Positions 47,978 through 64,000 of a DNA stretch of 64,000 nt are shown piece after piece. The notes below the pieces were generated by a model. The model searched no databases. It had not been told where the DNA came from and was given only the letters and a program-made list of their open reading frames with translations. Numbering within the stretch: position 1 is the first letter of the stretch; the number at the start of each line of letters is the position of its first letter. The position numbers and the translations under genes are program-made. Source of the stretch: Eledone cirrhosa (lineage: Eukaryota); NCBI GenBank assembly GCA_964016885.1, contig OZ024751.1, positions 39,370,001-39,434,000 on the forward strand. Reading direction: 5' to 3'.

Positions 47978-48761
47978 GGATTAATGCACACAATGCAGAT
48001 CCTGGGTACACAAGAGATGTAGCGGGATAGCAGGCAAACTAACAGGTAGGGAGAAATATGTATGCAGTAGATGTACAGGGAAATTAGACAGTAGAGGTCG
48101 CATTGATAGACACATTTTTCAAATGCAGGCGGGTGCTATAGAAGTGGTGGATAGCTTCCGGTACCTAGGAGATCAGATTAGCATGGGAGGAGAGTGTTCC
48201 GAGGCCATAGTATCTAGAATAAGGATGGGTTGGAAGAAGTTTAGGGAGCTGCTTCCTCTGCTGACGAAGAAGGGTTTCTCCCTGCGTATGAAAGGCCAGT
48301 TGTGTGATGCCTGTGTGAGGAGCGCGATGCTGCATGGTAGTCAGACATGGGCAGCAACTGAAGAGGATATGCGACGGCTGGAGAGAAATGAGGCAAGCAT
48401 GCTCCGTTGGATGTGCAGTGTCAATGTGCATGAACGACCCAGCATGAATGTGTTGAGAGAGAAACTGTGTCTGAGAGGGATAGAATGTAGTGTACGGGAG
48501 AGGAGACTGAGGTGGTATGGACATGTGATGCGCATGGAGGATGACCGATGGGAGAAGAAGTGCCAGGAAATGCCAGTTGAAGGAAGACGTGGTAGAGGTA
48601 GACCACGAAAAACATGGGTGGAGGTGGTGTGAACAGACCTTAGATCGTTGAAGCTCACGGTGGAGATGACAAAGGACCGTGACGAGTGGAGAGATGCTGT
48701 GCTGAATAAGACCCATCCCACCCTTGCAAGCAAGGAAGAGCAGACGTAAAATGATGATGAT
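47978..48761 (+). mobile_element. 5'-truncated RTE-clade LINE
   Basis: CTQCRSWVHKRCSG...CSRC...VDSFRYLGD...GWKKFRELLPLL...MLHGSQTW...RLRWYGHV...GRGRPRKTW; 3' stem-loop and (TGA)n tail. Confidence 0.95.
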
Positions 48762-51885: not shown

Positions 51886-52081
51886 TGACTTGTCTCCCTT
51901 TGGTGGGATAATTAAGGTGATGAACTTGAGGTCAAACATAAGTTGAAGGGATCTCTGTTGATTAAGAGGCAATGAGTCAGGGGTGAGAGGCAACTGTTTA
52001 GTGTGAGCATTCTTCAAGAGATGTTCGTAGCAGTCAAGGACTCCCTCAAATATTTGGCTCACTATATCCTGTAGTACTTGT
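51886..52081 (-). CDS. COG1: COG1 internal exon (QVLQDIVSQ...NQQRSLQLMFDLKFITLIIPPKGDKS)
   Basis: Resembles COG1 Q.RALQL.(Y/F)DL.(Y/F)...KGD. Acceptor polyT..CTATTTCAG (phase 2), donor TCA|GTAAGT (phase 0) matching the next exon. Confidence 0.88.
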
Positions 52082-52688: not shown

Positions 52689-52886
52689 CATATATATAAA
52701 CATTTTCTTTTCAATGGCTGACAATACCGTACCAGCGCCACTCGAATAAGGTAGTTATTTAACCCAGAAATGGGGCCCTAACAGGTACTGGGAGTTATGA
52801 TAAATAAGGGGTAACTCCACATTCCCCACAGCTCCTGAACTCTCGAACTGGACCCTTGCCACTGGATGTAGTTTAATGTCATACGA

Positions 52887-53227
52887 GAATGCTGAGGATA
52901 GCTCTGAACCTTAATCAGTATACACTGAGGATGAAGAACTCAGAACTGTATGGGAGCTTCCCAAAAGTCAGCTCAAAAGTGACACAGAGGAGACTGAGGT
53001 TAGCTGGACATGCTCACCGAAATCCAGAGTTGACACTGCACTCAGTGCTCCTGTCGGAGCCCCTGCATAGACACATTGGAAGAGGAAGACCAAGGTTAAC
53101 GTATGTTGATGCCCTAAGGACAGACACTGGTCTGTTGGAGACGCAGGACATTGCAACGAGAATGAGGCACGACAGAGACCACTGGAGAGAACTCATCCAT
53201 GGATCTCGAGAAGTTTACCTGCCCTAG
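52887..53227 (+). mobile_element. LINE C-terminal fragment, same family as 21138-21565
   Basis: MLRIALNLNQYTLRMKNSELYGS...RRLRLAGH...YVDALRTDTG; ends at TAG followed by (ATAG)n. Confidence 0.9.
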
Positions 53228-53323: not shown

Positions 53324-53778
53324 ATATCATTATATACACACACACACACATGTATATATATGGGTGTGTTAAGTTATTATGTAGTGATGGTGCGATAAAA
53401 CATACTTGATGAGGGAAACCTATCTGAGATCCAGTTTAGATTTCCAGATGTAACACTGTTGCTACTGTTCTTAGGAACAGATCAAGACATCTGGAATATC
53501 TCCTTTCACATTCCTTGGTGAGAGCAAAATAAAATTGTATCTTTCTTTATATTTATCAACTAAAGAGTCACTGTAATCTTGAAATTGAATTTGAGATTAC
53601 AACTTTATATAAACATATTATTGTAATGTCTGTTTTGTTTTTATTTTGAGCCAAGAGAGCAATTATTGGTAAAGTAGACAGTACGCTACTGTATATGATA
53701 AAGATAAAGATGAAGATTTCTTATCTATTAATATAATGATGGCTATTTTTTATAATATTCCAAGTCACATACGCCTAT

Positions 53779-53825
<47 letters not shown>

Positions 53826-53895
53826 GTTATTCCGGGTTGAATCGGAGGTAACCACAGTAAGTAAGGTACTCAATACATTGCAGAGTATAAAAGTG

Positions 53896-53970
53896 TTAAT
53901 ATAGATGAGATTCTACAGGACTAGAACTGTTTCATTCTTTAGAAATCATCAGGAATCTCATCTATATTAA
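53896..53970 (-). ncRNA. Complete type I hammerhead ribozyme fold
   Basis: UUAAUAUAGAUGAGAUUC CUGAUGA U-UUC-UAAA-GAA-U GAAA CAG-UUCUAGUC-CUG UA | GAAUCUCAUCUAUAUUAA: 18-bp stem I, intact core, stem III, GUA triplet. Confidence 0.75.
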
Positions 53971-54013
<43 letters not shown>

Positions 54014-61087: not shown

Positions 61088-64000
61088 ATCTGCGAGCTAC
61101 CAAGCACCCACGTGAAGCGCCAACCCAGACCCTCCCCTACGAGTGTCGACAAATGCCCAAAACTCCGAGTTGGGTACCATCAAGTGTAGGCTCAATGAAA
61201 GGAAGAGCAGGGAGAAATCGTAGAAATGCTAGAGCGAAAGGAAGTTGATGTATGCTGTGTGCAAGAGACTAGATGGAGAGGAGGGTCTGCTAGAGTCCTT
61301 GTAGGAAAAGGCCAGTGCTACAAATTTTTCTGGGTGGGAAATGACGATGGGATGGGTGGTGTAGGTATACTATTAGCTGACAAGTGGGTAGATAAAGTAA
61401 TCTCAGTGTACAGGGTAAATGCAAGAATCATTAAACTCAGACTAGTCCTGAATAAGACAATTACCACAATAATATCAGCTTACGCACCCCAATCGGGGCT
61501 GCCAGACGAACTTAAGGATAGGTTTTACGAGTCCCTAATACACACTACTGCTCTAACAGACGACAAGGACTTCCTAATCATTGCAGGAGATTTTAACGGA
61601 CACGTAGGTAAACACTGCGACGGCTTCAATAGAGTACATGGAGGCCATGGAGTTGGCACAAGGAATGAGGAAGGATTCAGACTTCTAGAATTCTGCGACG
61701 CCAATGACATGTCGATATGTAACACAAACTTTAAAAAACCCGACAACCACCTGATCACCTATAGATCAGGGGAGCACTCTAGTCAGTTAGATTTTATCCT
61801 CATCAGAGGACGTGACAGGATGGACGGTCGTAAACACAAAAGCCTTCCCTAGTGAGGAATGTACATCCCAACATAGCTTAGTTGTCAGCGACCTCACGGT
61901 CAGAACTAGACGAGCCCTGAAACAGAGCCAACCTGGAGAAGAAAGATCTGGAAGCTGAAAGTCCCCTCAACCAGTAACAGATTTAAAGATATTTTACTCA
62001 ACGCCTACGACAGTAAAGAAGAACAGATAGAGACATTTAACGTAGAAGAGAACTGGGAGTTCCTAAAAAATAACTTACTAGAGGCGACGGATGAGGTTTG
62101 TGGCTGGAGTAAGACCTCAAGCAGGAGGAGAGTGACTTGGTGGTGGAACAATAAGGTAGATGAAGCAGTCAAGGCCAAGAGACAGGCATGGAAAGAATGG
62201 AAGAACGGGGGGAGCAGGGTACATTACATAGAGACCAAGAGGGAAGCTAGGCGACAAGTATACTTAGCTAGGAGGGAAGCAGAGGATAGAAAATTCAAGC
62301 ATGTTTTACAACGTGAGGACCAGAAACAGGAGGTATTCAAGATTGCGAGGCAGTGTGTCAGAGATAGTTGTGATGTCATTGGAGAGAAGTGTATCCGGAA
62401 TGATAAAGGTGAGCTTGCCCTCACAAGTGCTGAGAAGAAAGATGCATGGAAGAGTCATTATGATAGATTACTAAATGAGGAGAATGCATGGAAGAAGAGA
62501 CCCTACCCCACGTAGACCCTATAGAGGGACCAGCAGTACAAGTCAGCGGCAGCGTAGTAAGTAAGGCAATCAGAGATATGAAGATAGGGAAGGCAACCGG
62601 TCCATCGGGTATAGCTGCCGAGATGCTGAAGGCATCTGGGTCTGTAGGTCACACTATAACCACACGTATCGTTAACCAGGTAATACTAGAGGGGGCCATA
62701 CCAAAAGATTGGTGCAGTAGCATCATTGTCAACTGCTACAAAGGTAAAGGCGATGCACTAGATAGAGGAAACTATAGAGGTATAAAGTTGATGGACCAGG
62801 TCATGAAAGTAACAGAAAGAGTTATAGCACAGCTGATTAGGGACCGGGTGAATATAGACGAGATGCAATTTGGGTTTGTTCCAGGGAAAGGCACCACTGA
62901 TGCGCTCTTCCTTGTGAGGCAATTACAGGAAAAGTACCTAGCTAAAAGTAAGCCACTCTACTTGGCATTTGTCGACCTTGAGAAAGCCTTTGACAGAGTT
63001 CCACGTGCAGTAATCTGGTGGGCTCTTAGAAAACTAGGAGTAGATGAATGGCTTGTGAAAGCGGTACAAGCCATGTATAGGGGAGCAGTCAGCAAAGTTA
63101 GGATTGGCAATGAGTATAGCGAGGAATTTAGCGTACAGGTTGGGGTCCACCAGGGCTCTGTTCTTAGCCCTCTCTCCTGTTTCATCATAGTCCTGCAGGC
63201 AATAACGGAGGAGTTTAAGACCGGATGCCCATGGGAACTCCTGTATGCTGATGACCTCGCACTCATAGCTGAATCTATGGTAGAACTAGAGAATAAATTC
63301 CAAACCTGGAAGCAGGGACTAGAGAGAAAGGGCCTCAAAGTCAACATGACAAAGACTAAGGTCCTTATAAGTAGACGAGAAAACAGAACCCAGATCCCCT
63401 CAGGGAAATGGCCTTGCTCAGTATGTAGGAAAGGTGTAGGTAGGAACTCCATTCTCTGCCCCAAATGCAAACAATGGGTACACAAGAGATGTAGCGGGAT
63501 CTCAGGAAGCTTAATTAAGAATGTAGGATTCACATGCAGCAGCTGTGCTGAAACAGCAAGCAAACAGCCACAGGAAACAAGTACCACCAATCTCTGGGAG
63601 GGCCCTGTAGAAACAGTAGACAGCTTCTGCTACCTAGGTGACCGAATTAGCAACGGAGGTGGGTGCTCAGAAAGTACAATAACTAGGGTAAGAACGGGAT
63701 GGAAGAAGTTTAGGGAACTACTACCACTGCTAGCTGCAAAAGGCTTCTCCCTCAGAATGAAAGGCAGACTGTATGATGCGTGTATCCGAACAGCGATGTT
63801 GCATGGTAGTGAGACCTGGGCGCTGAAGGTGGAAGACTTACGTAGATTAGAGAGAAACGAAGCCTGCATGCTCCGATGGATGTGTAACAGTAATATACGT
63901 GAACGACAAAGCATAAATGAATTGAGAGAGAGACTGAGCATAAGAGGAATCAAATGCTGCGTGCAGGAGAGGCGGTTACGCTGGTATGGACATGTGATGC
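61088..64000 (+). mobile_element. Near full-length RTE-clade LINE (APE endonuclease, RT, PHD-type finger); runs off the window
   Basis: APE motifs CVQETRW, AYAPQ, GDFNGH and QLDFIL; RT motifs FVDLEKAFD, GVHQGSVLSP, LLYADD (YADD from 63244) and YLG. Frame is open from ~62510 to 64000; a few frameshifts lie upstream. Confidence 0.96.

Follow-up and report, generated by a model that had tools for sequence, protein, structure and literature searches.

A hammerhead motif in a COG1 intron as the truncated end of a Hydra-clade Penelope-like element

The minus strand of the window (the whole 64-kb stretch of DNA analysed here) carries a complete type I hammerhead, which is the end of a young, very high-copy Penelope-like element (PLE). 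Our results make it very probable that a Hydra-clade PLE left this end, 5'-truncated and partly inverted, in (TA)n repeats within a COG1 intron, with a ribozyme of its own that is likely slow and without effect on COG1 splicing. Signed positions below are relative to the predicted cut site.

The window hammerhead and its COG1 intron

A motif descriptor, together with reading of the sequence, identified a three-stemmed type I hammerhead with an open stem I at 53970-53896 on the minus strand; this was the only descriptor match for the class on either strand of the 64 kb. All consensus positions examined are present (C3 U4 G5 A6 N7 G8 A9, G12 A13 A14, A15.1-U16.1, and H17), whereas the 10.1-11.1 base pair, usually G-C, is replaced by U.U. 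The full minus-strand hammerhead proposed in an earlier note on this DNA therefore stands, with its core, GUA triplet, stem I of 18 consecutive pairs and stem III of four pairs (counting A15.1-U16.1, around an 8-nt loop), as does the weak stem II closed by U-U. The features of the insertion and its surroundings are as follows.

53975..54004: (AT)15 microsatellite target, on the 5' side of the insertion
53974-53953, minus: inverted arm, 22 nt, reverse complement of the element between the predicted cut site and +21
53952-53946, minus: hammerhead core CUGAUGA, by sequence reading
53945-53934, minus: stem II, with U10.1.U11.1, three pairs and a 4-nt loop differing among subfamilies
53933-53930, minus: GAAA, by sequence reading
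53933-53914, minus: block of GAAA, stem III, and GUA
53916-53914, minus: GUA triplet, predicted cut between 53914 and 53913
53913-53896, minus: stem I 3' strand, native part 53913-53908; the remainder pairs with the inverted arm alone
53895-53825, minus: remaining pLTR and "tail", to the usual 3' end of the family
53776..53824: (TA)n target microsatellite, 3' flank of the insertion
51886..52081, minus: COG1 exon on the 3' side of the insertion, corresponding to about residues 742-807 of reference P0001
49073..49198, minus: next COG1 exon, in frame with exon 51886-52081
36526..36625, both strands: relic, older and from a related subfamily, made up of an inverted arm at 36578-36526 (minus) and a tail at 36590-36625 (plus)

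The final 6 nt of the inverted arm (53958-53953) are the native 5' strand of stem I, upstream of which the parents L021, L022, and L077 carry other sequence. The two arms of the window copy (53953-53974 and 53892-53913) differ at one base; L021 and L022 share the direct-arm variant, and the inverted arm has the usual letter, reflecting either a recurrent mutation or arms derived from two different RNAs.

Structure prediction gave a mixed picture. The motif is strongly folded (z = -5.8, with none of 200 shuffles as stable), but this stability comes from stem I, and the minimum free energy (MFE) structure lacks stems II and III. ViennaRNA gives the active fold a free-energy penalty relative to the MFE of 3.4 kcal/mol in the window copy and 4.2 kcal/mol in the parent; pairing in stems II and III is rare in the predicted folds (P of at most 0.07), while stem I of the window copy is predicted to be stable (P 0.89). 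At the gathering score, Rfam detected no hammerhead in the window, its matches being two likely tRNA-derived SINE heads alone, and Hammerhead_HH9 was matched below threshold (15.3 bits, E 0.6, versus a gathering score of 52). These two tRNA-like matches, at 33296-33359 (minus) and 40713-40770 (plus), are near-identical and barely over the gathering score.

A homolog search matched the minus-strand exon 51886-52081 to Octopus sinensis COG1 at 83%, the sole ground here for calling the host octopus-like; Pfam searches of the window open reading frames (ORFs) did not name COG1. A tblastn search of the window together with the next 60 kb of contig places COG1 exons on the minus strand, in window numbering, at 91683-91600, 74419-74343, 52081-51886, and 49198-49073, the last three with GT-AG ends and matching phase. 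As the earlier note had placed it, about 1.8 kb before an exon, the hammerhead is intronic and in the sense orientation: it lies inside a 22,261-nt GT-AG intron, 1,832 nt before the acceptor, with the upstream exon (74419-74343) beyond the window end. A minus-strand stretch at about 37780-37560 carries a motif by which we take it to be a probable later COG1 exon; reference P0001, isoform X4, has a different end.

Older relatives are also present. The truncated copy noted previously near 36559 is real, but consists of an older-subfamily inverted arm joined to a tail, without CUGAUGA and with a broken stem III. The COG1 intron that hosts the hammerhead also contains, beside (TA)n, a second older, broken relic of a related subfamily with an incomplete core (L070:6015-6097; window numbering 70015-70097, minus). 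A further fragment is found at L074 (window numbering about 113079-113134). LINE-like retrotransposon fragments occupy 47985-48632, 52877-53227, and 61199-63629 (plus), the last with an endonuclease domain.

A young repeat family and its parent element

The window insertion is a 150-nt element end between (TA)n tracts, and positions 53958-53825 are identical to L021 over 134 nt. A 161-nt query returned 1,099 genome candidates, the best 40 of which were 96-100% identical, and (TA)n flanks and a common 3' end recurred among the 30 copies fetched from these candidates. The genome-wide family count proposed in the earlier note was obtained with two exact probes: the 38-nt tail is present in 7,347 copies and the 35-nt core, allowing three variable loop letters, in 13,640, with 0 for the control in both cases; the core count is strand-skewed, and tandem arrays may add about 2,000 to it. 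One tandem array of the family end, with 12 pLTR copies at about 1.08-kb spacing, lies at G000:C1:83679806-83691731.

The coding part of the family was found at loci such as L061, where the order is inverted pLTR, truncated RT-GIY-YIG ORF, microsatellite-like stretch, pLTR. An RT query gave 981 candidates, the best 40 at 98-100% identity, showing that the parent family amplified recently. The pLTR and hammerhead directly precede the ORF in 8 of 30 loci fetched (L077, L086, L089, L092, L094, L100, L102, and L103), and in full-length copies the pLTR/tail sequence corresponding to window positions 53895-53825 continues into the ORF leader. The RT beside L021 had also been considered as an unrelated neighbor, which was rejected because full copies join pLTR and ORF. 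In the intact parent (L077), the ORF encodes 715 amino acids, with RT followed by a C-terminal GIY-YIG by motifs: RWR at 40, DKT at 118, YRDD at 349, CxCx5C at 569, VY..YIG at 589, CxxC at 669, and CxH at 697. The translation has a single Cys within the GIY-YIG core, and GxKF/Y, DKG, and DKA are absent from this ORF.

These motifs match the Hydra-clade signature that Craig et al. 2021 define in their section 11 (PMC8557442), which includes RWK, DKT in place of DKG, CxCx5C, and CxxC/CxH around the EN E and N, without GxKF/Y or CCHH. Pfam recognized no RT or GIY-YIG domain in the 715-aa ORF itself, and a PDB profile search gave weak RT matches, the best being a retron RT (E 0.011). The domain assignment rests on the motifs, on 78 ORF homologs at 32-53% identity, some of which carry PF00078 and PF01541, and on by-eye collinearity with Hydra-1_Obim of Octopus bimaculoides, which is listed in File S1 of Craig et al. 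(PMC8557442). Insertion in (TA)n, a pLTR hammerhead, and tandem or inverted ends are all present in this family. Placed by motifs, insertion features and by-eye comparison, the parent is a Hydra-clade PLE, which bears out the kinship with Penelope and retrozyme type I hammerheads suggested earlier; the family is new, its protein being set apart from Hydra-1_Obim by eye, and the kind of element is already known. Naiad and Neptune were rejected as parents, the EN being C-terminal and the linker CxCx5C occurring with DKT.

The ORF measures 2.1 kb and at least 1.2 kb of microsatellite-like stretch lies ahead of the 3' pLTR, against a clade length criterion of less than about 3 kb. More than 1 kb of (TA)/(TG)-rich microsatellite-like sequence separates the ORF and 3' pLTR at L061:2670-3900, L062, L064, and L067, and at L079 another repeat is inserted in this stretch. 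By carrying its own (TA)/(TG)-rich stretch, the element spreads its own kind of target.

Two properties of the window motif that had seemed special are explained by the family. Native stem I in the parents is 6 bp, and the extra 16 nt of the window copy repeat downstream sequence in inverted orientation. This makes the 18-bp stem I a by-product of the inversion junction; by hand count, the long-stem junction occurs in 41 of 100 among the matches listed of 138, or about 55 copies, less than 1% of the family. The U.U at 10.1-11.1 is ordinary, occurring in 14 of 25 Hydra-clade families (hand count from File S2 of PMC8557442) and in 24 of the 62 hammerheads found in related metagenome loci (50 of 78 loci carried them; 1 was found in shuffles). 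It is a natural variant and the best-tolerated mismatch (Perreault et al., PMC3088659).

Stem covariation and conservation, which the earlier note had proposed to examine, were assessed next to each other. Among nine hand-picked subfamily rows, two pairs of stem I changed on both sides and 99% of cells were paired, whereas stems II and III were invariant; these two-sided changes in native stem I, with stems II and III unchanged, argue that the ribozyme was kept in master lineages. Among 90 copies, divergence was 1.2% in the core and 3.9% in the flank, so that the core did appear better conserved, but the flank fell to about 1.1%, equal to the core, without three subfamily-diagnostic sites. It follows that individual copies decay neutrally and that the core is spared only among changes in the master lineages. 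Loop II varies freely between copies and subfamilies; contacts between stem I and loop II give speed at low Mg2+ (PMC3088659).

Copy formation, RNA start, and cleavage

The 90 copies were selected by the tail alone, as the first 90 of 7,347 along C1, two of which share a flank. An adjacent inverted arm was present in 57 of them, mostly beginning at +15 to +18 by alignment, and the loop II variant was common to both arms in 30/32. The far ends of the 57 inverted arms fell at -36 to -45 in 42 cases, at -46 to -50 in none, beyond in 9 and earlier in 6, and 42 of 86 direct arms started at -33 to -47. We propose that the GIY-YIG nuclease of the element would cut the (TA)n target and that both DNA ends would prime reverse transcription on element RNA, with one start at the end of the tail, at about +89, and the other at +15 to +21; both cDNAs would run to the RNA 5' end and then be joined, yielding an inverted arm and a direct arm. 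In the window copy, the short arm would have been joined via the 6-nt stem I repeat, or would have run off an already-cut RNA, a join that would have lengthened stem I to 18 pairs by accident. By analogy with PAc in vitro (PMC11167929), we infer that two-end priming at two sites around the tail fits the arm data; for PAc, uncut RNA was the main insertion substrate (PMC11167929). Where arms stop at -44/-45, a few added bases often complement the cDNA immediately preceding them, as though its end had folded back once it ran off the template, and such snap-back-like junctions were seen at L004:939, L029:2892, L120, L134, and L178.

Position -45, the first base of stem I, lies within CCAGATT, 30 nt behind TATAAATA. 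CCAGATT resembles an initiator. The TATAAATA box and its spacing persist in diverged subfamilies (L136 and L180), and genome-wide matches across -30 to -64 numbered 1,837 arms versus 13,640 cores. Among 36 de-duplicated relatives, from 51 with enough flank, TATAWAW occurred 33-47 nt before the core in 9 versus 2.5 expected (0 of 2,000 rotations), an interval picked after seeing the data, and the strict box was missing from the other 27. Copy ends piled at the first base of stem I behind a recurrent TATA box suggest that the element RNA likely starts there, with the ribozyme, 30 nt behind the box. The wall at -45/-44 has two rival readings. It could be a 3' splice site, as in D. virilis, although no upstream exon is common to the 90 junctions and diverged subfamilies lack a pyrimidine tract while retaining TATAAATA and CCAG; alternatively, it could result from cDNA fold-back. 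Contigs of two sequencing runs span the whole element and are silent on start, strand, or level.

A broader proposal, to which we attach an even balance of belief and doubt, is that a TATA box in the Hydra-clade pLTR, about 36 nt before the core, fires at the opening base of stem I, so that the RT mRNA would begin with the hammerhead as a capped 5' leader that acts as a switch. If so, uncut RNA would be capped, translated, and copied, whereas cutting would remove a 45-nt capped leader, and twin-armed insertions would be run-off copies that map the RNA start and, less so, the cut site. No description of a TATA-plus-hammerhead layout was found in the available portion of the literature on Penelope hammerheads, most subscription papers lying outside the search.

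Cleavage was evaluated from arm ends, with hand counts over the span common to both listings, C1 to C4:355 Mb. Arms leaving at the cut site, from element to element and without long microhomology, made up 17 rows (15 loci), which is what 69 cut-site rows leave after subtraction of 24 long-stem, 3 tail-microhomology, 6 two-base-microhomology, 12 substitution or indel, and 7 unassigned rows. Control positions gave 4 rows at the matched -8, 0-1 at -6, and 6-7 at +2 (17 vs 4, p 0.007 for -8; 17 vs 7, p 0.064 for +2). About 16 such rows were found at -2 in a shorter span, where TA microhomology confounds the count. A sharp pile-up at the cut site was therefore not shown, -2 having about as many junctions; the excess of arm ends near the cut site is broad and only suggestive, and some cleavage in vivo by this family is likely. 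Arms that span the core number 13,640, compared with 138 matches that leave at the cut. In either case, uncut RNA was the template for about 99% of arms. The scarcity of cut-site ends may not measure the rate, as cut RNA may be a poor template.

Cleavage of COG1 pre-mRNA by the window hammerhead is possible, and as a monomer this copy may be more active than its parent, with a locked stem I, a real four-pair stem III, and a tolerated U.U. Metazoan PLE hammerheads cleave weakly in vitro (PMC4209133), and slow intronic ribozymes have no effect on splicing whereas fast ones abort it (Fong 2009, cited in PMC10919898). At the quoted mammalian transcription rates of 3.5-4.1 kb/min, the 1.8 kb to the acceptor would take about 30 s, so that a weak minimal hammerhead likely loses the race with splicing. 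Because most insertions derive from uncut RNA and the active core is disfavored by about 3-4 kcal/mol, slow cleavage with no gene effect is likeliest. Retrozymes are depleted from Xenopus introns (Li et al. 2026, 10.64898/2026.07.22.740005), and a small cost is therefore possible.

Alternative readings and comparison with known systems

The first alternative is that the accidental 18-bp stem I turned this copy into a fast monomeric ribozyme, which would cleave COG1 pre-mRNA ahead of splicing and so reduce COG1 output. The sense orientation in a real intron, the complete core, the stable stem I (P 0.89), and the modest excess of cut-site arm ends (17 vs 4 rows, p 0.007) speak for it, as does the finding that fast intronic ribozymes abort splicing (Fong 2009, cited in PMC10919898). 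Yet only 1.8 kb, about 30 s at mammalian rates, separates the motif from the acceptor, stems II and III are mostly unformed in prediction despite the long stem I, and no conserved loop contact of the kind that gives low-Mg2+ speed (PMC3088659) is present, making this reading improbable. Far less credible still is a domesticated, conserved intronic regulatory hammerhead similar to amniote HH9/HH10 or the CPEB3 ribozyme: the intronic sense position and the weak HH9 match (15.3 bits, E 0.6) would suit it, but that score is far below the gathering value of 52, the 134-nt identity to a dispersed copy makes the insertion very young, and it is one of more than 7,000 copies.

An independent non-autonomous retrozyme or SINE-like family, with the 150-nt long-stem fold as its unit, would account for the roughly 55 copies with the long-stem junction (41 of 100 among those listed of 138 matches) and for short, ORF-less copies being the majority. 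We regard it as highly unlikely. The window insertion is a solo 150-nt copy rather than a tandem one, junction positions shift from one copy to the next over -33 to -47, the same junction is found facing either way with respect to the tail (L113 vs the window), long-stem copies differ in loop II, and identical sequence lies within ORF-bearing parents. We thus retain the Hydra-clade PLE end as the preferred reading. The functional link to COG1 raised previously is not supported for what is one of more than 7,000 young copies; we found no support for a host role in this analysis, and COG1 is most likely unaffected. Genome scans call for caution, given that sense intronic hammerheads are expected by chance with more than 13,000 cores from one family and that perfect long stems can be insertion scars. 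Being young, with intact ORFs and thousands of junctions, the family offers useful material, and these junctions bear on the role of PLE hammerheads and on where PLE RNA starts.

Other hammerhead repeats were encountered in the fetched sequence. L075:1-3211 (on G000:C11, 7-10 kb ahead of the window) and L068:4457-7637 are tandem arrays of a 310-bp unit, with 10.4 copies at 99% and, in L068, two inverted blocks. The hammerhead of this unit has a stem II resembling that of the present family (U.U, UUC/GAA) and a palindromic stem III (CGCG), and the arrays are retrozyme-like and probably stem from a related PLE. By chance, the fetched flanks also contain at least five more hammerhead families, several with a palindromic stem III (L041, L050, L057, L116, L119, L038, L011, L060, L134, L166, and L193). 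Lunse and colleagues reportedly described dimeric PLE hammerheads in 2017. HH9 is conserved, and HH9 and CPEB3 are conserved single-locus motifs, unlike the window hammerhead, which is a recent repeat insertion. These intronic host ribozymes (HH9, Rfam RF02275; CPEB3, PMC10919898) are similarly intronic and sense and could compete with splicing. Metazoan non-LTR retrozymes (PMC7229834; Li et al. 2026, 10.64898/2026.07.22.740005) also have a type I hammerhead, a relation to PLEs and non-coding copies, but form tandem arrays (PMC7229834; 10.64898/2026.07.22.740005), whereas here a solo truncated pLTR has a non-palindromic stem III.

PAc, a Poseidon element of Anolis (Frangieh et al. 2024, PMC11167929), resembles the present family in having two internal reverse-transcription start sites that bracket the tail, priming on both DNA strands, and uncut RNA as the main template. 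It belongs to a different clade, and its hammerhead overlaps the start codon (PMC11167929), whereas here it lies about 130 nt upstream of that codon. The closest likeness is to the Hydra clade of C-terminal EN+ PLEs itself (Craig et al. 2021, PMC8557442), which shares the single RT and GIY-YIG ORF, the RWK-like, DKT, CxCx5C, CxxC, and CxH motifs, (TA)n targets, the pLTR hammerhead, and tandem or inverted 5'-truncated insertions with a tail. Some of its hammerheads also have U.U closure of stem II, ACAG/CUGU in stem III, and GUA (PMC8557442). Relative to that clade, this family has a tail of about 68 nt rather than 30-40 (PMC8557442), a long microsatellite-like 3' region, an 8-nt loop III, and recent amplification; Hydra-1_Obim in particular has another hammerhead sequence and, by eye, a collinear but diverged protein.
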